Source: Escherichia phage P896
Reading direction: 5' to 3' (one strand)
DNA length: 64,000 bases
Sequence record: OL451225.1
Position 1 is the first letter of the stretch; the number at the start of each line of letters is the position of its first letter. Positions 35,577 through 46,101 of the stretch are shown piece by piece. A model generated the notes under the pieces. It worked only from the letters and a program-made list of their open reading frames with translations. It had not been told where the DNA came from and did no database searches. The position numbers and the translations under genes were made by a program.

Positions 35577-37637
35577 CTACGAAAGGAATTTAGGAGGAAT
35601 AGCTTCCAAATTAATACAACTAGCAAGAATACCAAGACCTTGATTGACTTTCTTCGTTACCCCAGAGGATGCAAACGATGCAAAGTCAACAGATTCTGCT
35701 GGCTCTTCTGTTTCCTCGCCCTGATAAACGACAAGCTCACCAGTTTCCATCAACACATCACCATCATAGATAACTGCATTTTCATCCAGTTGGTCCGTAG
35801 TCTGGATATCAGCTTCCAGCATTTTGACGTTCGCGTTTCCTTGATACGAAGCATCAGTAATTTTGGTAATCTTAACTACAGTCCCACGAGGAAGAATAAC
35901 TTCCTGCTCGGACGGGTTGCTTGACAATTCCCCAGGAACAATTACGTTAATTAAGTCCGCCCCAGAAATTTTCCAACCAACATGCATCATTACGTGGTCG
36001 CGGCGTGCATCCGGCATATCTGGTAAAACAATTTCGTCATCAGCCTGGAAAGATGTCCCATCACGATAGTCCTGATGAACTGCAGCCATAGCAACGTTCG
36101 CCACCCAGCCACCAAAGATAATCGGTTTAAACGACGTTGATACATAGTTCCTGAAATAAAATAATTTAGATTTCTTAATTTTATCAAATGTAGGAACGTT
36201 TAAATATTGACCACGCCAAAGAGTTGTATTAGGCGGCAACTTATGTCCAATTTCAAAGGCCGAATCCAATTCCTTAATTGTTTCGACAACTCTGTCTAGA
36301 TTTAGGAATTCAGCTTCTTCTTCATAATATTTGCCCATCAAATAATTATTAATATCGGCATAGTTTGCTCCACAATAATCTGCAATTGCTTCTCGCTGGC
36401 CATAATGGAAACGGTTGTCAGTATACCCTGCTGTGAAATTAAGAGTATTTTCTGATGCTTCTTCGGCAAAGTCTTTAACTGCAACACGAATGGCGCTTGT
36501 GTATTCTTTTTCCCAGAGCGAGGCTGCATAAGTGGCTGCATCCAGGTTAGGAGGAGCATCATTCATTTTTCTTTCGATAAATGCGGCTTTGCGAAGGTTA
36601 AGAATCTCTGCGCATGATTCGGCAAAAATCTGCATCTGCTTCATACTACCAACCGGAGCACGTTTAAGTTCACGATGCATACGGTTAAAAATTGGGTCAG
36701 AGTCTTCAACACGAATTTCTTCTTTCCAAACACCATTTGCTCGCATAGCCTCATCTGCTGCACGCATACGAGCCATAGTATTCGTTTCAGAAGGTCGAAC
36801 AAAAATTTCCAGTTCTTCATAATCATCGATAAGTTCTGCCGTAGCCGGTCGACTAAACTTAGCAGCTTCTGCATCAATTTCGTCCCAACCGTCTGGTACG
36901 GAATCACTTGGAGCGTACTGGGCTTGTGCAATAGCTCGGCGACTGATTTTAGTTTTCTGGGCAACAGCAGCATCGGTCTTTTTGTTTGCTGCGTCAATCA
37001 GAACTTCGGCTGCGATTTCTTGTTTGGAGACTTGTGCGCCTGTATCTTTATTAGTGAATACATCGCCGACTTTAGTTTCAACTTTTTGATATTTCTCAGG
37101 GACCGGTGGCATACCATCAACCGAAAGCAGGTCAACACCCTTTTTGTACATAATTACATAAGCGTTCTTTTTACCGAGGCCGGAAGCATTCGGAAGAACA
37201 TGATAACGCCCGCTGGTTTTCATTTGAATCAGTCGATTCATAATACGAATAACAGCTTGGTCTTGTCCTTTCATCTTTTTGGATGGGAAACGGAACAAGA
37301 CTACATCAGGTTTGCCTAGTTTAATGCTTTCCCAGACTGTAACAAAAATCAGGTTAATCGCATCAAGAGGTTTTTCACCTAGACCACCCTTCAGAGGAAT
37401 AGCATGGCCATGTGAAGTCCCGGATAACAGGAATACCTCGGCAATTGCATCGCCACGTTTATATTGTTTAACTGTTTCTTTGCCCGTGAATTGCATCAAA
37501 CGGGCCATAAGAGAATTGGTCCCAGGAACACCGAATTGCCAAACCTGCGGGACCTTGTATTTTGGATTCATATTAATGACAGGATAACCGAAGGCTTCGA
37601 TATATTTGTCAAAGAGTTCATTTAATTGTTCAGACAT
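35577..37637 (-). CDS. alt: Alt-family ADP-ribosyltransferase (internal head protein), copy 1
   Basis: 686 aa; N-terminal LNE|LF motif of the prohead-protease type; C-terminal ART signature ...YVSTSFKPIIFGG...EQEVILPRGT. Confidence 0.85.
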   Translation of the reverse strand: MSEQLNELFDKYIEAFGYPVINMNPKYKVPQVWQFGVPGTNSLMARLMQFTGKETVKQYKRGDAIAEVFLLSGTSHGHAIPLKGGLGEKPLDAINLIFVTVWESIKLGKPDVVLFRFPSKKMKGQDQAVIRIMNRLIQMKTSGRYHVLPNASGLGKKNAYVIMYKKGVDLLSVDGMPPVPEKYQKVETKVGDVFTNKDTGAQVSKQEIAAEVLIDAANKKTDAAVAQKTKISRRAIAQAQYAPSDSVPDGWDEIDAEAAKFSRPATAELIDDYEELEIFVRPSETNTMARMRAADEAMRANGVWKEEIRVEDSDPIFNRMHRELKRAPVGSMKQMQIFAESCAEILNLRKAAFIERKMNDAPPNLDAATYAASLWEKEYTSAIRVAVKDFAEEASENTLNFTAGYTDNRFHYGQREAIADYCGANYADINNYLMGKYYEEEAEFLNLDRVVETIKELDSAFEIGHKLPPNTTLWRGQYLNVPTFDKIKKSKLFYFRNYVSTSFKPIIFGGWVANVAMAAVHQDYRDGTSFQADDEIVLPDMPDARRDHVMMHVGWKISGADLINVIVPGELSSNPSEQEVILPRGTVVKITKITDASYQGNANVKMLEADIQTTDQLDENAVIYDGDVLMETGELVVYQGEETEEPAESVDFASFASSGVTKKVNQGLGILASCINLEAIPPKFLS

Positions 37638-37646
37638 TTTTAACCC

Positions 37647-39521
37647 TTAATTGAGAAGGTGTACAAGTTTTTCCATAGACAAATCATAAGAGATTCTGTC
37701 ATATTTTTTCAAAAGCGAATTTGATTCGTCTATCTGGTCATTTTCTAAGATAGAGCATTCAACGAGAATGTATTTACCCATCGAACCCATCATGCCAGCT
37801 GTAGCACCATAGACTTTATCAATCTTAAGCATTGTTCCACGTGGAAGAATAACTTCGGTTTCAACGGACCAGTTTGCCAGGTCACCAGGAATAACTACCT
37901 TGATATTTTCTGCACCTTTGATAATCATACCAATCTTGATTGTAGGTTTCGCCGAACCAGTTGCACTTTTAATAGTTGCATCGATTGCCCCATCATCGAT
38001 ATCACTCGATAATGCATTTGGGTCAAGGTTCGCAGCGGTGTGGCCCATACGACCGAAAATATTTGGCGCCAGAGATGTACTCGCAAACATAGGAAGATAC
38101 ATCGTTTTATTTTTGATGGAATTAATTGCCATATCGGTTGGCATGACTTGAGCACGGTAGATGATAGTTCCTTTTGGAAGCTTAACACCGTTTTCAAATA
38201 CTTTATCCATATCGGAAATCATTTTGATTTCGCTTTCTTTTGCGTCAGCTTTCCCTAGCAGGAAATTATTGATTGCAGTATATTTTCCGCGAGTATATGC
38301 CTTAATTGCTTCGGCCTGGTCTTCAGTTATTTCAGGGTTGTCGGAGATATGAAATAATGGTTGGATGGCCTTGGTGTAAATTTCATCTGCGATAATACGA
38401 ATAGCTTCTTTAGTCTTATCTTCGCGCGCCCAGGTCCCCACAATGGAGTCGTCAAGCAACATATCAGCAACTCTGCGCAATGTATCAACAGGATTCTTTG
38501 AGGCCCGCAGGACGTTCGAAAACTCACTTATTTTGTGTTCCATGCCAACTTCTTTAAGAGCATTAAACACATCCATGGCTACACGAGTTTTTGTCTTATC
38601 TTCACCAACACCACCTTGTGCAACTAAATCAAAATAGTCTGCATACTCATCACCCGCACGGTCGATTACTTTTATTGAAGCTTTAGCTATCTGACTTTCT
38701 CTGGCATCATCTGCTGAATGCACTGCGCTACTGGTCGAGAGTTTTGTATAAATCTCTTTGTGCTCTGGTGAGAATTTAGCAAGGCCAGTTGGTTCGTTCC
38801 CCGAATACAATGCGTTAATAGCTGCGCGTTTAGAAAACTTGGTTTTAACAACAACTGCCTGGTCTGTACGTTTTTCTTCAACCTTTGCAATAGAGGCCGC
38901 AATAGCTTCATTCTTGGTAACAGTTTCGCCGGTGGCTTTGTCTACATAAACATCACCGACTTTCGATTCCACTTTTGTGTACAATTCGGTATTGATGCCA
39001 GGAATTCCGGCGATAGATTCAATTGGTTTGGATTTACGATAAATCAATACGTAAGTATGTTTACCCGTGTACTGATACATATCATCCAGAACTTTGAACT
39101 GACCGCCGGCACGGGCCATAATAAGCCGAGCAAGAACACGCTGAATAGTTCGTTCTTGTCCCTTCATTTTGCGGGTCGGGAAGCGGAACATAATTGCATC
39201 CATTTTCATCAGTTTTACTTGTTCGTAAACTACATCAAAAATGGATTTAATTGCTCCAATCGGGTTATCACCAAGACCACCTTTAAGAATAGCTGGAGTA
39301 CCGTTTGAATTTAATGACATCAAAATAACGTGTGCATACTTATCGCCAGTTTTGACCTGTTTAATAGCATCGCCTTCGGATGCGTAAGACACCATACGAG
39401 CAATAAGATTATCATTCCCCGGGACCTGGATATTCCAAATCTGTGGAACTTTTGACTTTGAAAGGTTAATGGCCGGGATATTAGATTCCCCTTCAAAAAC
39501 CTCTGACAATAATTCGGTCAT
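37647..39521 (-). CDS. Alt-family ADP-ribosyltransferase, copy 2 (tandem paralog)
   Basis: 624 aa; shares the N-terminal region with copy 1 (KVPQIW..., LKGGLG, RFP.KKMKGQ, TKVESKVGDV); ART signature ...FASTSLAPNIFG...ETEVILPRGT. Confidence 0.85.
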   Translation of the reverse strand: MTELLSEVFEGESNIPAINLSKSKVPQIWNIQVPGNDNLIARMVSYASEGDAIKQVKTGDKYAHVILMSLNSNGTPAILKGGLGDNPIGAIKSIFDVVYEQVKLMKMDAIMFRFPTRKMKGQERTIQRVLARLIMARAGGQFKVLDDMYQYTGKHTYVLIYRKSKPIESIAGIPGINTELYTKVESKVGDVYVDKATGETVTKNEAIAASIAKVEEKRTDQAVVVKTKFSKRAAINALYSGNEPTGLAKFSPEHKEIYTKLSTSSAVHSADDARESQIAKASIKVIDRAGDEYADYFDLVAQGGVGEDKTKTRVAMDVFNALKEVGMEHKISEFSNVLRASKNPVDTLRRVADMLLDDSIVGTWAREDKTKEAIRIIADEIYTKAIQPLFHISDNPEITEDQAEAIKAYTRGKYTAINNFLLGKADAKESEIKMISDMDKVFENGVKLPKGTIIYRAQVMPTDMAINSIKNKTMYLPMFASTSLAPNIFGRMGHTAANLDPNALSSDIDDGAIDATIKSATGSAKPTIKIGMIIKGAENIKVVIPGDLANWSVETEVILPRGTMLKIDKVYGATAGMMGSMGKYILVECSILENDQIDESNSLLKKYDRISYDLSMEKLVHLLN

Positions 39522-39546
39522 ATTGTTTTCCTTATAAAATATGATG

Positions 39547-39554
39547 TATTTATA
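39547..39554 (-). promoter_or_regulatory. late promoter TATAAATA upstream of the alt tandem
   Basis: Minus-strand TATAAATA 26 nt upstream of the copy-2 ATG, AAGGA RBS. Confidence 0.55.
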
Positions 39555-39579
39555 CGAAAAAAGGACCGAAGCCCTTTTG

Positions 39580-41121
39580 TTATTTTAATCCAGTCTTTGA
39601 CCAGTCGCCAAATACATCTTCGAATGTGTCTGCATGGTCTTTATCGAAACGGAACCCTTTGATAATCGGCAGGAACAATGCAACCGTATTATCTTTACGA
39701 GTCTCGGAAGTCAACCAACCATTACATTCACAGTCGGCAATCATTCCAACCAATTCGCCTTTACGGGCTTTAACCATCAAGGCTTCACGGTCCATTTCAT
39801 GACGCTCCTCAATCGGAATAGTAACCCATTTTTTGGTTTTCTTATCTTTAACTTGAGTTGTGTCTTTAAAACCAGAACCACAGTTATTTGTAATCTTACC
39901 ACAAGAAGAACGAAGCACAACACCACCAATCTTATTCGGGTCTTTATCGTGCTCGTAATATCCAATGATTTCCATTGCGATGTCAATTACTTCTTTGAAC
40001 TTGTACAAGTTCTTTGAGCGCTTGTTTTCCCAAATCGATGCCATGTTCTTAAGGATAATACCTTCAAGACCTTCATCCACATATTTCTTATAGATAACCT
40101 TCGCTTCATCGAGATTGTTAACAACATGGTTTTCAATCAGAATCATGCGGTCAAAACCATGCAGCACCACGTTATCTGCAATCATCTTTTCCAGAACAGC
40201 AAAACGCACATCGTATTTTAACGGATTGAGTATCTTAACATCAGAATAGACTTCAATCAATGGAACATAATCCCAAACCTGGAATTTCATGCAAGAAGCT
40301 TCTGCTGCAGAAATAGTTCCTTTCAATGATTTGTTTGCCAGACCATTTGAAAAGGTTCTTGATTCCGCGAATTCTGCGAATTCTTTTGCCTTACTAAGCT
40401 CAGGCATATCGTCAAAAAGGAAGCTCAAACCATCATTCTGGGGAGCTATTTTCTGTTCATGATATACTAACTCGCCGTCAATCAAAACGCCCTCAGGATG
40501 TCTCTCACGCGCTTCACGGGTAGCTTCAATCAATTCCTTTTTAAGGAGGTCAAGCTTGAGGTATTCGTTGCCAGCTCGGGATAACAATCGAACATCATCC
40601 AACTCATCGCCACGAACTTCTGCAAAACACCGAGCGCCGTCGGCTTTCAATTGTGCAAAGGCCGGGAACTTAATGTTCTTGGCAATACCGGCTTCATCAT
40701 AGGAAGAAGCGAGCATCTGCGGTTGTTCAGGAATTAAACCTTTCCAAACCTTATTTGCAATTGATACGGATGCCCCGCATTCCAGGTCACGCATCATAAC
40801 ACGCCGCAGGACTTCAACATCTGCTTTTTTACCATCAGCAATATAGCCAGATAATTCCTCGATTGCAGCATTACCTGTTAATTTACGAGAGGCTAATGTG
40901 AATTCAATAAAGTCAAGCATATCATCGATATTCAGCATACCAAAGCTTTGAGTCGTTGTCCCAGGTTTTGGCCATTTCTTAATATAGAACTGGATGCCTT
41001 TGGAATATGTCAAACGATACACACGTTTGAGGGTTTCATTGTCAGAATACGATTCCAGAATAGCTTGTTTCTCTTTAGTAGAATCGGTTGCAGCAATTTC
41101 ATTTAAAATATCTAAAATCAT
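39580..41121 (-). CDS. 30: ATP-dependent DNA ligase gp30
   Basis: 513 aa; MILDILNEIAATDSTKEKQAILE...; adenylylation motif KADGAR. Confidence 0.95.
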   Translation of the reverse strand: MILDILNEIAATDSTKEKQAILESYSDNETLKRVYRLTYSKGIQFYIKKWPKPGTTTQSFGMLNIDDMLDFIEFTLASRKLTGNAAIEELSGYIADGKKADVEVLRRVMMRDLECGASVSIANKVWKGLIPEQPQMLASSYDEAGIAKNIKFPAFAQLKADGARCFAEVRGDELDDVRLLSRAGNEYLKLDLLKKELIEATREARERHPEGVLIDGELVYHEQKIAPQNDGLSFLFDDMPELSKAKEFAEFAESRTFSNGLANKSLKGTISAAEASCMKFQVWDYVPLIEVYSDVKILNPLKYDVRFAVLEKMIADNVVLHGFDRMILIENHVVNNLDEAKVIYKKYVDEGLEGIILKNMASIWENKRSKNLYKFKEVIDIAMEIIGYYEHDKDPNKIGGVVLRSSCGKITNNCGSGFKDTTQVKDKKTKKWVTIPIEERHEMDREALMVKARKGELVGMIADCECNGWLTSETRKDNTVALFLPIIKGFRFDKDHADTFEDVFGDWSKTGLK

Positions 41122-41396
41122 TTAATATCTCTTCTGGTCATAAAGATTCTATTATAAGCTACTTCATCTTGAAGCTCATTTAAAGTCTTTTGATATGTAT
41201 TAATCCAACGTCTACCACGAGAGGTTGTTACAAAATACTCGGAGATGTAAATAAATCCTTGTTCAACACATTCCATGAATATTTTTTCATATCTAGCTTG
41301 GTTGTATAAAGGCTTTGCTCGTAAGAACTGTGTCACATTCCCGTAATCATGGGTAGAACATCTTCCGTCTGAAATATCATGAACGACAAACATCAA
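41118..41396 (-). CDS. hypothetical protein (30.1 position)
   Basis: 92-aa ORF, ATGA-coupled to the ligase gene. Confidence 0.6.
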   Translation of the reverse strand: MMFVVHDISDGRCSTHDYGNVTQFLRAKPLYNQARYEKIFMECVEQGFIYISEYFVTTSRGRRWINTYQKTLNELQDEVAYNRIFMTRRDIK

Positions 41397-42217
41397 TTAC
41401 CCCCTTGGCCACCGGTCGGTTGGTTGTACCAATATTCAATGCCAGTACCTACGCGTGGACCATATTGATATGGATATGCTGGATTATAACCAGGAGTCCA
41501 TGGTTGACCTGGTTGCCAGCCTTGTTGCATTTGTTGTTGAAGACGGCGAGTTTCACGAAACAGCTCTTCCAGTTTACGGAGTTCATCAGGGGTGAATTCT
41601 GGTTTGACTGGTTCATCTTTGTGTTTCAGTTTAAGCTGCCCAGCTACATCGTCCCAATTAAAAACTTTGGAAGCTGTTTTAGGAATAGCATCACGTTCAC
41701 CACGAGCCATCCAATAAACCGGAATCTCAAGGATTTCACTCGCATGGTCGCAATGGTGTGCAAGGTCATCAATATAACAAACGACATTATATTTGGTCTT
41801 CGCCTTCTGGAATAACTCTTCTTTAGAAGCTGTATGGCCGCACATCATCACTTCTTTAAATGCACCAGGGAACAAAGCATTCAGGTTGAATTGACGATTC
41901 AGACGGGCGTCAATGGAATCACCCAGAGCCGTAACAGCCACAAAATCATATTGCTCTTTGAGGTTATTAATAACCCTTAACGCATCTGCGTAAGGAGACA
42001 AATAGCGAATAAAATCTGAACAGTTATATTTCTCAATCAACTGTGCTCCCAACTCTTCATCACAATTGAACAGTTTACCAGGGGTCACAAATTTTTCATC
42101 CTGAATCATCTTAAGGATATGTTCCAGGGGTAAATTATATTTTTGGGCGAAATAAGGCAAGCCAGACTGCCATGACAAACATACGCCATCAATATCTGTT
42201 AAAATAACGGGTTTCAT
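41393..42217 (-). CDS. HAD-superfamily hydrolase (nucleotidase-like) with Q/P/G/Y-rich C-terminal tail
   Basis: 274 aa; N-terminal ILTDIDGV HAD motif I; C-terminal low-complexity ...QQQMQQGWQPGQPWTPGYNPAYPYQYGP... Confidence 0.7.
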   Translation of the reverse strand: MKPVILTDIDGVCLSWQSGLPYFAQKYNLPLEHILKMIQDEKFVTPGKLFNCDEELGAQLIEKYNCSDFIRYLSPYADALRVINNLKEQYDFVAVTALGDSIDARLNRQFNLNALFPGAFKEVMMCGHTASKEELFQKAKTKYNVVCYIDDLAHHCDHASEILEIPVYWMARGERDAIPKTASKVFNWDDVAGQLKLKHKDEPVKPEFTPDELRKLEELFRETRRLQQQMQQGWQPGQPWTPGYNPAYPYQYGPRVGTGIEYWYNQPTGGQGGN

Positions 42218-42699
42218 AATGCATCTCTCAATTGGTTAAGTATGTCAATAAATTCTTGTTCAGTCAATATTGTATCATGAACAGTAAGGTGACTCGCCAT
42301 CGAATGCTTTAAAACTTTGCCCTTTGTAGCTTGTAATGCGTCGCGGAATCCTTTGTTTTGGAGCGCTGCTTCAAAATAAGCATTTGTATACAACTCTTTC
42401 CATGATGTAGAGTATCTTGAAAAGGGAATTCCAAGCCAGAAAAGCGTCCCACGGTCCGCAGCTCTCGCATAAGCTCTTCCACTTTGCTGGGCGGCCAGGC
42501 CGGACATCCCAAATATACGTTTTTGTTGTTCATGATTTCTCACCTTACACCCTTGCAGGAAGCCTTCAAGACCTCCAAACTGGATGCCCTCCATAACAAA
42601 AGGCCATTTAGCAAAGTTACTTAATGCACATGATGGCCATGGGAAATTGCTTCTGATTTCTAACTCAGACATCTTTGACACTGATAATCTTGGTTGCAT
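42214..42699 (-). CDS. NADAR / YbiA-like (DUF1768) domain protein
   Basis: 161-aa ORF (start may be at MSELEIR, 42672); ...SNFAKWPF...EGFLQGCK... matches the YbiA pattern xSNFAxWP...EHYFQAQKF. Confidence 0.65.
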   Translation of the reverse strand: MQPRLSVSKMSELEIRSNFPWPSCALSNFAKWPFVMEGIQFGGLEGFLQGCKVRNHEQQKRIFGMSGLAAQQSGRAYARAADRGTLFWLGIPFSRYSTSWKELYTNAYFEAALQNKGFRDALQATKGKVLKHSMASHLTVHDTILTEQEFIDILNQLRDAL

Positions 42700-42877
42700 A
42701 CCACATACCGTGGTCCGGTAATCTGGATTTAATTGACCGCCCGCGATATGTTTTTCGCATTACAACAGTCTTAATAGCATCTTCATCACAAGCATATGGA
42801 GGTGATAAATCAATAACACGATAAGTAACTTCAACCATTTCCAAGCCAAACAGCTTTTTAAATAATTTCTTAATCAT
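42665..42877 (-). CDS. small hypothetical protein, tandem paralog A
   Basis: 70 aa; ...EMVEVTYRV.D.SP...IISVKD shared with the neighbouring ORF. Confidence 0.6.
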   Translation of the reverse strand: MIKKLFKKLFGLEMVEVTYRVIDLSPPYACDEDAIKTVVMRKTYRGRSIKSRLPDHGMWYATKIISVKDV

Positions 42878-42886
42878 GAAGGTTCC

Positions 42887-43099
42887 TTAAATATCTTTGA
42901 CGCTGATAATATATACATCAGCCCAATGACCATAACCAGGTAGACGGTCTTTAATAGATAATCCACCGTCAGATTTCAGCATTTTAATTGTTTTAGTATA
43001 TGGTTCAATATTTCGGGCCCATGGACTCACGTCAGTTACGCGATAAGTAACTTCAACCATTTCTGTTCCCAAAATTTTCTGAATCAGTTTCTTAAACAT
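42887..43099 (-). CDS. small hypothetical protein, tandem paralog B
   Basis: 70 aa; paralogous to 42665-42877. Confidence 0.6.
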   Translation of the reverse strand: MFKKLIQKILGTEMVEVTYRVTDVSPWARNIEPYTKTIKMLKSDGGLSIKDRLPGYGHWADVYIISVKDI

Positions 43100-43100
43100 A

Positions 43101-43295
43101 TTATCCTCGCCTTAAACATTTGATTACAGACAGTTCACCGTCCATGCGAACGTCTTCTGTTCCGTCAACCCACAGGACTAGATACGCTTCTTTAATTACA
43201 ATACCACCGAATTTAAAAGCAGGCAAGACCTTAGAAATCATTCCAGGAATACCTACGCCTTTTAACTGGACAGTTTGCGATAGAAATAGTTTCAT
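43101..43295 (-). CDS. hypothetical protein
   Basis: 64-aa ORF packed without gap in the early operon. Confidence 0.5.
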   Translation of the reverse strand: MKLFLSQTVQLKGVGIPGMISKVLPAFKFGGIVIKEAYLVLWVDGTEDVRMDGELSVIKCLRRG

Positions 43296-43612
43296 TAGAA
43301 CCTCATCTGGAAACCGTGTGATTTAACATTACCGCCATTAATATCAGACGAATTGACTTCACGTGCTGCAATTGGGTCAATATCAATGTCGCGGCTAAGC
43401 TTGGTGATTGCCAGCGTATCACGTCCATTAACAGTCCTGAATTCAACTGGGCAAACTATATCCACATAGTTTTTAATGGATTCTTTAGTTGGTTCACACC
43501 CAGCAGGAACATTAGGGCCTTTTTTAGAGAAAACAACTTCACAGAAATTTTTGCGTGTATCAAAGTAAGTAGTCATAAACATAGTATTTTCCTCAAGGGG
43601 CTTTCGCCCCAT
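43295..43612 (-). CDS. hypothetical protein
   Basis: 105-aa ORF (start probably at an internal Met). Confidence 0.55.
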   Translation of the reverse strand: MGRKPLEENTMFMTTYFDTRKNFCEVVFSKKGPNVPAGCEPTKESIKNYVDIVCPVEFRTVNGRDTLAITKLSRDIDIDPIAAREVNSSDINGGNVKSHGFQMRF

Positions 43613-43618
43613 TTAAGA

Positions 43619-43984
43619 TTAGATATCAAATTCATTAAGAACTACATCAAAGATTGCTTCCAGGTGTTCAGGTTTTGCTTTGTTACCCAGGATATGACGA
43701 ATCCAAGTTTTAACCAACAGCTTGCGATTAACACCATTCCAACAAGGATGAGTACCTAAATCACGCTCGCGGAAATCATCATCTAAAGCAATTTTAAAGG
43801 TTGAACCAGTCATAGTGATTGAAAGAGTGATACCATTTTCAAATCGCATATAAACGTAGTTAGGAGTCATATACTGTTCAATTTCGCACACTGAACCATT
43901 TTTATGTTTCCACAGGCAAATAACTTCAGAAGAACCTGGGATGCAGTTAGAAACATATTTGCGTTCAAAGTTGATGTAGTTCAT
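43619..43984 (-). CDS. hypothetical protein
   Basis: 121-aa ORF with RBS. Confidence 0.6.
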   Translation of the reverse strand: MNYINFERKYVSNCIPGSSEVICLWKHKNGSVCEIEQYMTPNYVYMRFENGITLSITMTGSTFKIALDDDFRERDLGTHPCWNGVNRKLLVKTWIRHILGNKAKPEHLEAIFDVVLNEFDI

Positions 43985-44055
43985 TTTATTCTCCAGTTGT
44001 TTTCATTTGTTGGTACAGGTCTATAATATCATAACCTGTACCAAAGTAAACTGTT

Positions 44056-44424
44056 TTATGCGACTTTAATCCAATTATCTAAATTTAATTCACCCTTAGC
44101 TTTCATTTTTTCAATCAAATCATCAGCAGTAGTGCGACCATTTTGATACCATGTAACATCTTCAGAATAACCAGTTTCTTCATCTTCATAGGTCTTACAG
44201 CGAATCTTACCAAGAATCAAAGTTTTCAGTTCGTAGGTATCACCAGTAAAAAAGTTTGTTACCATAATTTTCCAGGAGAAGTCATCAGAAGGACCTTCTG
44301 GAGTCATGCAAGAAACGAATTCAAATTGTTCTTTATACAAGTGCCATTGCATTTCTTTAGTTTCAATGGCTTTGTAACCGTCGTGGTCTTTACCTTTGAT
44401 GTATGAGTTAAGATTGATTTTCAT
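44056..44424 (-). CDS. hypothetical early protein
   Basis: 122-aa ORF directly downstream of a family A promoter cassette; GGAG RBS. Confidence 0.6.
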   Translation of the reverse strand: MKINLNSYIKGKDHDGYKAIETKEMQWHLYKEQFEFVSCMTPEGPSDDFSWKIMVTNFFTGDTYELKTLILGKIRCKTYEDEETGYSEDVTWYQNGRTTADDLIEKMKAKGELNLDNWIKVA

Positions 44425-44495
44425 TTTATTCTCCAGTGTTTTATTGTGTAACTCAGTATGGAATCATTATGCACTGGACCAACCCTGTTGTAAAC
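44425..44495 (-). repeat. early promoter + 5'UTR cassette, family A copy 2
   Basis: GTTTAC (44490-44495), 18 bp, CATAAT (44466-44471), leader TTCCATACTGAGTTACACAATAAAACACTGGAGAATAAA-ATG. Confidence 0.6.
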
Positions 44496-44516
44496 CCCTT
44501 TATGGAAAATAAAAAA

Positions 44517-44534
44517 GGGACTCCGAAGAGTCCC
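44517..44534 (-). terminator. intrinsic terminator after the 53-aa gene
   Basis: GGGACTCcgaaGAGTCCC hairpin followed on the minus strand by TTTTTTATTTTCC. Confidence 0.6.
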
Positions 44535-44539
44535 TGAAC

Positions 44540-44701
44540 TTATGCTTTCGGCTTACCAAAGCAAGCTGCATCGGCACGCAATACCGCACGAGCACGAGCC
44601 TGAAGTTTATCAGTTACCTGATTGATTCGCTTGTTGGACGCACGCTTGTAACCAGCGCGTTTGGAGGAGCCATCAACAACTTTAACTTCTTTCTTAGCCA
44701 T
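44540..44701 (-). CDS. hypothetical small basic protein
   Basis: 53-codon ORF read by hand: MAKKEVKVVDGSSKRAGYKRASNKRINQVTDKLQARARAVLRADAACFGKPKA; weak RBS. Confidence 0.45.
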   Translation of the reverse strand: MAKKEVKVVDGSSKRAGYKRASNKRINQVTDKLQARARAVLRADAACFGKPKA

Positions 44702-44996
44702 ATTAAATTCTCTTTAAAATAGAATGCAGGACTTATTGACATTGCCTGCGCAAGCCCTCGAAGGGAACATTAGGTTTCGGATATTTAACGACAGGATAAC
44801 CATAAACCTCGTCATCATACCAACCACGACTTAGACAGATAACCTTTTTCTGACGCGTGATAGTACAAAATACATTCAAGAGGTACACCACAAAATTATC
44901 GGGGTCTAAAACTATAATGATTCGCAAATCATTAATCAGATAATTCGGTGGCTCCTCGATTTTCTAGCCGCACTAAGGTAGCGAATCACCTACAGC

Positions 44997-45251
44997 TTAC
45001 TTCAGGGTTACGACAAAATGGCGAACAGCTTTACGCGCAGCAGATGCCAGCGGCTTAGCAAATTTCAGTTCATCTTTTGCTTCGAGCACTGCGCGAAGGT
45101 CGGTTTGAATCGGGTTAAGATGTTTGAAATACTGCAGAATTTCCAGTGCTTCGGCTTCAACATCAATAGATGCGCCGTAGTTTTCGTGACCGTTATTCCA
45201 TGCAGTGCGTTGCAGTTCGAGAGCGTGTTGTAATTGTTTGTTTAAAGACAT
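44997..45251 (-). CDS. rIII: rIII lysis-inhibition accessory protein
   Basis: Start at MSLNKQLQHALELQRTAWNNGHENYGASIDVEAEALEIL with GAGG RBS; recognised as rIII-like; position before gene 31. Confidence 0.8.
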   Translation of the reverse strand: MSLNKQLQHALELQRTAWNNGHENYGASIDVEAEALEILQYFKHLNPIQTDLRAVLEAKDELKFAKPLASAARKAVRHFVVTLK

Positions 45252-45422
45252 TTTAGAAGCCTCAATATGAGGTGAATATTTGGTGGACACGTTCTTCTGA
45301 ATTTCACTTCCTTTCGGCAAGTCTCTCAGTTGTAGTCCACCGTTTAGGATTAGCTAACCCAATACACCAGCAAAGCTCTGTATGACATCAACCAATCCAT
45401 ATTATTATTTATAACGCTAATT

Positions 45423-45770
45423 TTACTTATAAAGACAAGGAACAGCTTTATAATGACAGGTCACAAATTTCTGCTTAACTTCTTTAGCCTGCTTAAGTCC
45501 CAGAGCAACCAGAGGATGCGGAACGTTTGCAATCTTGCCAACCGGAAGAGGAGTCAAATCACCTACTTCACAGAAACCTTCAGGAACATCCGGACCAACC
45601 GAAAATACTTCACACATCTCCGGGATTTCACCCTGATGGAGTTTTCCGATAACGATACCTGATGCCGTAGTTTCTTCATCACCAGCTTGCTTTGGCTCAG
45701 AAACCAAAATAATATATTCACCTACTGCTTTAATTGGTAATTCCATATTTAATCCATGTTGTTTGGTCAT
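45423..45770 (-). CDS. 31: co-chaperonin gp31 (GroES analogue)
   Basis: ...[23 protein letters not shown]...[14 protein letters not shown] recognised as T4 gp31-like; start may be the internal MELPIK (45746). Confidence 0.9.
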
Positions 45771-45801
45771 GTATTAATAATAACACGCATTGTTTGAAGC
45801 A

Positions 45802-46101
45802 TTAAAGGACAAGCAGTGTCTCGGTCTGCAGTCCATTCACGGAAATCAATTTATTGAAACAGAATGAACGCCATTCATTAAGCTTGGTATCAAATACCCG
45901 GATATAGCTAACTGGTTCTTTATGAGCTTCTGGCCCAGGGACCTGGATTTCTTTATACGGCAGCAGGTCCAGGTCGCGAGTACAAGTCATACGGCGGATG
46001 CTACCATCTGCTTTTTCAAACAGAACTTCGTGAAAACCAACAGACAAAATAGTCTTGACTTTTTCACGGAGACGAATTGTTTCTTGTTCAGTTAAAATCA
46101 T
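45802..46101 (-). CDS. hypothetical protein (31.1 position)
   Basis: 99-aa ORF. Confidence 0.6.
   Translation of the reverse strand: MILTEQETIRLREKVKTILSVGFHEVLFEKADGSIRRMTCTRDLDLLPYKEIQVPGPEAHKEPVSYIRVFDTKLNEWRSFCFNKLISVNGLQTETLLVL

Follow-up and report, generated by a model that had tools for sequence, protein, structure and literature searches.

An intact orthologue of T4 gene 30.3 (adfN), probably encoding an anti-DarT1 NADAR, in the Gaprivervirus-like Escherichia phage P896

A minus-strand gene of Escherichia phage P896 is very probably an intact orthologue of T4 gene 30.3 (adfN, anti-DarT factor NADAR), specifying a minimal, core-only N-glycosidase of the NADAR fold that acts against DarT1. 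The gene lies in a stretch of 64,000 nucleotides (sequence record OL451225.1), hereafter the window. Its orthology and fold, the intactness of its catalytic set and C-terminal helix, and its synteny with T4 are established in the present analysis. By orthology, the product would be a guanine-specific DNA ADP-ribosylglycohydrolase that counters the host defence in the manner of an orphan antitoxin. The family itself is already in the literature, as are its fold, enzymology and anti-DarTG1 role (Mol Cell 2023;83:2303; Toxins 2024;16:208; Nat Commun 2025;16:1598).

The ORF listing of the window gives a frame of 161 codons at 42214..42699. The original prediction, made from the letters alone, had quoted two motifs from this frame, SNFAKWPF and EGFLQGCK, and had given no strand; by the ORF listing the strand is minus, and both motifs are present in the translation (...ALSNFAKWPFVMEGIQFGGLEGFLQGCKVRN...), so that the frame described was real. 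In a Pfam scan the protein matches PF08010 (Phage_30_3, 'Bacteriophage protein GP30.3') over profile positions 2-138 of 138, with E = 7.7e-64 and a score of 214 bits (cut-off 36), which places the ORF far beyond chance. Identity over the full length is 85% to T4 gp30.3 and 97% to gp30.3 of Shigella phage SP18, and the translated match in Escherichia phage PSD2001 (tblastn) is 99.3% identical. Megablast of 41000..44500 returned T-even phages, the best being Escherichia phage CJ20 (97.0%) and Shigella phage SP18 (95.7%), both of the genus Gaprivervirus; judged by these matches, the window is that of a Gaprivervirus-like T-even phage. Homologues of 30.3 are widespread, with tblastn matches in 1510 phage records, of which 1503 are close to full length, from phages of Escherichia, Klebsiella, Aeromonas, Acinetobacter and Vibrio. 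Among the matches listed from these 1510 records, the proteins carry hypothetical or gp30.3-type names; PHROGs assigns the window protein to phrog_652, 'unknown function', and NCBIfam has no model for it. The annotation of the gene could safely be raised to AdfN or phage NADAR.

The extent first given for the gene, 42214..42699, stands at its end but not at its start. Conservation points to the second in-frame ATG, at 42672, as the start, and the shorter reading, of 152 aa plus stop, is therefore preferred as the most likely extent of adfN/30.3 (Table 1). The gp30.3 proteins of T4 and SP18 are annotated at 152 aa, and most database homologues have 150-153 aa. In T4, an in-frame TAA occurs 12 nt upstream of the 30.3 ATG, and the 30.3 start codon meets the 30.4 stop codon in an 8-nt overlap, ATGTCTGA, that is common to the window and T4. 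The longer start at 42699 was rejected on these grounds, and the upstream segment MQPRLSVSK is probably not translated as part of the 30.3 protein. The same overlap suggests that 30.4 and 30.3 are translationally coupled. At the other end of the gene, the 4-nt overlap of 30.3 with 30.2 also occurs in T4 (30.2 end 128310, 30.3 begin 128307).

Table 1. Positions of adfN/30.3, its parts and its surroundings in the window
Feature	Position	Strand	Basis or remark
adfN / gene 30.3 CDS	42214..42672	-	ORF listing, PF08010, identity to T4 and SP18, start kept in T4; extent most likely
Upstream in-frame extension MQPRLSVSK, 27 nt	42673..42699	-	Within gene 30.4; T4 TAA; homologue lengths; probably not part of the protein
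ATGTCTGA overlap, 30.3 start/30.4 stop	42665..42672	-	Same 8 nt in T4
ATGA overlap, 30.3 stop/30.2 start	42214..42217	-	Direct sequence reading, ORF coordinates
SNFAKWPF motif, residues 18-25	42598..42621	-	Family alignments; aligns to YbiA FSNFAAWPI
EGFLQGCK motif, residues 36-43	42544..42567	-	Glu36 42565..42567, Lys43 42544..42546
His123 codon	42304..42306	-	Phage-NADAR replacement of the last-strand Glu (YbiA family) or Asp (DarG1 family)
C-terminal alpha-helix, residues 138-151, intact	42220..42261	-	Model secondary structure
ORF 30.3', 74 aa	42309..42533	-	+1 frame within 30.3; probably not a gene
Gene 30.2, 274 aa	41393..42217	-
Gene 30.4, copy next to 30.3, 70 aa	42665..42877	-	phrog_2042, unknown function
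Gene 30.4, upstream copy, 70 aa	42887..43099	-	phrog_2042, unknown function
DNA ligase gp30	39580..41121
30.1 (DUF3045), then 30.2, 30.3, two 30.4 paralogues, 30.5, 30.6, 30.7 (PF06919), 30.8 (PF06019)			Order of neighbours
Alt-like ADP-ribosyltransferase paralogues	35577..37637 and 37647..39521	-	PF03496
Terminator-like hairpin	44535..44516	-	8 pairs, then T-run; between 30.9 and 30.8
Promoter-like site	44494..44466	-	TTTACA-17-CATAAT, 10/12; just after the hairpin, upstream of 30.8

Membership of the NADAR superfamily becomes visible at the level of the family. Scanned alone against Pfam, the window protein gave only PF08010 and no match to PF08719 (NADAR) at E <= 1, and a single-sequence phmmer search of PDB sequences returned only a chance match (chitin deacetylase, E = 1.4). 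Taken by itself, the PF08719 scan would have wrongly dismissed the NADAR idea, and family profiles and structure were therefore used. The PF08719 profile search that had been put forward as a check thus failed for the single sequence and succeeded for the family: four of 12 aligned family members match PF08719 individually (best E = 3.5e-6), a hmmsearch of PDB sequences with the family HMM finds E. coli YbiA (2b3w) at E = 2.4e-4, and when the 23-sequence family alignment is compared by hhalign with E. coli K-12 YbiA, the probability is 95.3% (E = 2.4e-8), with family residues 15-122 paired with YbiA 27-124. The AlphaFold2 model, built from an alignment of the window and database sequences only, with the T4 and SP18 rows left out, has a pLDDT of 93.0 and a pTM of 0.88, contains no segment below pLDDT 50, and shows the YbiA-like alpha-helical core fold. 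E. coli YbiA is the best solved relative by sequence and is tied best by fold match. Every sequence and structure feature of gp30.3/AdfN and of NADARs that could be looked for was found. The link to the NADAR superfamily is solid, and within it the window protein belongs to the gp30.3/AdfN (phage NADAR) family, in keeping with the YbiA/NADAR assignment that had been drawn from the two motifs.

The catalytic residues, for which conservation had also been proposed as a check, are kept. Glu36 and Lys43 (numbering as in T4) are invariant in 23 homologues and are aligned by hhalign with YbiA E48 and K55; the corresponding pairs are E43/K50 in PnNADAR and E88/K95 in the E. coli C7 NADAR. In and beside the first motif, the family alignments show no variation at L17, S18, N19, F20, A21 and F25. 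His123, likewise invariant in the 23 homologues, is positioned in the model just after the last predicted strand (residues 120-122) and falls opposite YbiA E125 if the hhalign pairing is carried one residue further. Replacement of the last-strand Glu by His is the signature of phage NADARs (PMC11543638, PMC11125620).

The function of the family is known from T4. NADARs undo the ADP-ribosylation of guanine catalysed by DarT1, and a phage group was noted among them (Schuller et al., Mol Cell 2023;83:2303, PMC11543638). In DNA, guanine-ADPr is a substrate of purified T4 gp30.3, whereas thymidine-ADPr is left in place (Cihlova et al., Toxins 2024;16:208, PMC11125620). Phage crosses defined gene 30.3 as a determinant of DarTG1 resistance, and it was renamed adfN (Johannesman et al., bioRxiv 2024 PMC11257639; Nat Commun 2025;16:1598, PMC11825919); AdfN is the main factor in the DarTG1 resistance of T4 and T2 (Nat Commun 2025;16:1598, PMC11825919). 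Deletion of adfN from T4 or T2 costs ~10^4-fold in plaquing on DarTG1 lawns relative to empty vector, and ectopic AdfN rescues RB69; in a two-hybrid assay AdfN gave no interaction with DarT1, and the purified protein strips ADP-ribose from DarT1-modified DNA (PMC11257639, PMC11825919). The E36A and K43A substitutions impair T4 AdfN yet still permit partial rescue (PMC11825919), and catalysis by these residues may therefore explain only part of what AdfN achieves in vivo. In uninfected cells DarT1 is not neutralised by T4 AdfN, which also gives hardly any rescue to phages whose DNA is unmodified (PMC11257639); its activity is therefore context-dependent.

The suggestion in the original prediction that the gene acts as a counter-defence against DarT1 is thus borne out for the T4 orthologue, gp30.3/AdfN (PMC11825919, PMC11125620); enzymatic activity and the counter-defence phenotype are ascribed to the window protein by extension from these experiments. 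In the mechanism proposed, DarT1 of a host DarTG1 system would ADP-ribosylate guanine bases of replicating phage DNA, and the window enzyme would hydrolyse the guanine-ADP-ribose bond by means of Glu36, Lys43 and His123. Its target would be the DNA lesion rather than the toxin; with a replicable template restored, the phage would escape the abortive defence.

Comparison with characterised NADARs sets the window protein closest to T4 AdfN (gp30.3), with which it shares full length, sequence, both the 30.4 and 30.2 overlaps, the neighbourhood, the E36, K43 and H123 residues and an intact C-terminal helix. The two differ by ~23 substitutions (~15% of positions), none of them at a family-invariant position, and in the phage that carries them, Gaprivervirus-like for the window and Tequatrovirus for T4. 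DarG1, as in the Geobacter lovleyi NADAR (PDB 8BAT) and the E. coli C7 NADAR, is adjacent to DarT1, whereas the window 30.3 is an orphan: it is flanked by 30.4 and 30.2, no DarT-like gene was seen among the scanned neighbours, and the Alt paralogues, at least 3 kb away, are exoenzyme-type ADP-ribosyltransferases. The DarG1 chain in 8BAT has 219 aa with an N-terminal extension, against 152 aa and a core-only model for the window protein (134 residues align), and its catalytic Asp is replaced by His. T4 AdfN, moreover, is no substitute for DarG1 in uninfected cells (PMC11257639). The window protein is DarG1-like in chemistry but is not a DarG1, because it has neither an adjacent DarT1 gene nor the N-terminal extension. 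E. coli YbiA (PDB 2B3W) and the Phytophthora nicotianae NADAR (PDB 8BAU), both of the PF08719 type, are only ~20% identical to the window protein, which has no direct match to PF08719 and carries His in place of their last-strand Glu. The role of YbiA is metabolic, and its substrates include cytidine-ADPr, which the T4 NADAR does not remove (2026 study, PMC12945103).

Natural broken alleles of 30.3 exist, both in RB69 and among database homologues, and raise the question of whether the window allele is itself a decayed, non-functional copy kept only by synteny. The RB69 gene has a frameshift, so that its protein ends with TILT at residue 137; in the window there is no frameshift, and the sequence is ...TILTEQEFIDILNQLRDAL. 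The window 30.3 is full length and retains all 24 residues invariant in the family as well as the C-terminal helix, and the AlphaFold2 model is confident throughout. Decay of the window allele is thus very unlikely. An RB69-like C-terminal truncation of AdfN reduces its activity (PMC11825919), and RB69 is the one T-even phage found to be sensitive to DarTG1. The state of the 30.3 allele, intact as in the window or truncated as in RB69, would predict DarTG1 resistance among T-even phages and would be useful in choosing phages against DarTG1 hosts. The broken or rearranged alleles among database homologues (P0013, P0014, P0016, P0018 and P0019) include N-terminally truncated calls, hybrids that change from the 30.3 to the 30.3' frame or the reverse (P0014, P0019) and, in P0018, a fusion of 30.7 with 30.3. 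Errors of sequencing or gene calling may account for some of them; any that are real would predict DarTG1-sensitive phages like RB69. A different departure from the T4 picture would be a Gaprivervirus-type allele tuned to another DNA hypermodification, or to a defence toxin that ADP-ribosylates guanine but is not the E. coli DarT1 used in the tests. The idea derives solely from published work in which T4 AdfN performed best in T-even infections; set against it is the window protein itself, in which all family-invariant residues are unchanged. Such tuning seems unlikely, and if true it would mean that AdfN alleles have substrate preferences specific to the phage lineage.

The remaining alternatives give an intact enzyme another substrate. 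The original prediction had offered, beside counter-defence, that the enzyme balances the phage's own ADP-ribosyltransferases, that is, reverses modification by the two Alt paralogues ~3-7 kb away or by any ModA/ModB-type enzymes elsewhere. It had placed the gene near the alt genes, correctly in that two Alt-like PF03496 genes are found in the same region, with DNA ligase, 30.1 and 30.2 in between, and the alt...30.3 synteny is kept in T4, SP18 and RB69. Alt, ModA and ModB, however, modify arginine side chains of proteins, whereas NADARs cleave base-linked ADP-ribose. Of the nucleic-acid substrates tried with the T4 NADAR, only guanine-ADPr is acted on (PMC11125620, PMC12945103). The adfN deletion phenotype is specific to DarTG1 hosts (PMC11257639): the four-log drop was measured relative to empty vector, and adfN mutants therefore plaque on cells without DarTG1. 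The intervening genes separate alt from 30.3, the two show no sign of varying together, and RB69 keeps alt despite its frameshifted 30.3. From substrate specificity, the DarTG1-specific phenotype and the RB69 arrangement, a balancing role finds no support and is most improbable; a functional link between 30.3 and alt was rejected on the same grounds. A metabolic N-glycosidase of the YbiA type, detoxifying riboflavin-pathway intermediates as the product of a phage auxiliary metabolic gene, could be imagined from the standing of E. coli YbiA as nearest solved relative in sequence and joint nearest in fold. The last-strand Glu that defines that subfamily is, however, His in the window and in every homologue, phage gp30.3 forms its own NADAR family, closest to the DarT-associated NADARs (PMC11257639), and DNA de-ADP-ribosylation has been demonstrated for the T4 protein, all of which leave a metabolic role hardly credible. 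Removal of ADP-ribose from guanine in phage DNA, as for T4 AdfN, is the reading preferred for the window protein.

Pfam and PHROGs assignments of the neighbours, set against published annotations, give the window the same gene order as T4, alt-30-30.1-30.2-30.3-30.4...30.7-30.8, which is also that of SP18 and RB69. The gene occupies the orthologous position of the family, between 30.4 and 30.2 and downstream of ligase gene 30 and alt. A scan of 39000..46000 for promoters and terminators found no more sites than expected from shuffled sequence (17 against 18.1 and 5 against 5.1), and no transcription unit is therefore claimed. The terminator-like hairpin and the promoter-like site upstream of 30.8 (Table 1) could mark the start of a transcription unit that includes 30.3, although such sites are no commoner than in shuffled sequence.

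Within 30.3, the overlapping ORF 30.3' has a counterpart in T4 and matches Pfam DUF2883 (E = 3.3e-24). SP18 and RB69 have interrupted versions of it, of 53 and 34 aa, and Yersinia phage MHG19 lacks it. When synonymous codons of 30.3 were shuffled, the share of trials that left an alternative frame open for at least this length was 23-36% for the window and 6-10% for T4. On these grounds 30.3' was rejected as a second product of the locus, and it is probably not a gene.

Several neighbours have features of their own. The two tandem Alt-like paralogues (686 and 624 aa) are only 32% identical to each other; T4 has a single full alt plus the alt.-1/alt.-2 remnants, and the SP18 copy that adjoins the ligase gene is annotated 'alta'. 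Gene 30.2 is probably translationally coupled to 30.3 through the ATGA overlap. Its protein has a weak HAD-like match (PF13419, E = 0.049, below the cut-off), weakly resembles polynucleotide kinase-type PHROGs, and has a C-terminal tail in which Q, P, G and Y abound (...QQQMQQGWQPGQPWTPGYNPAYPYQYGP...GGQGGN). The tandem 30.4 paralogues are 54% identical to each other, and the upstream copy is closer than the other to the 30.4 of SP18 and RB69. Gene 30.4 is single in T4, SP18 and RB69, and the two-copy arrangement is found in 13 phage records, including CJ20, PSD2001, TH44 and WG01.
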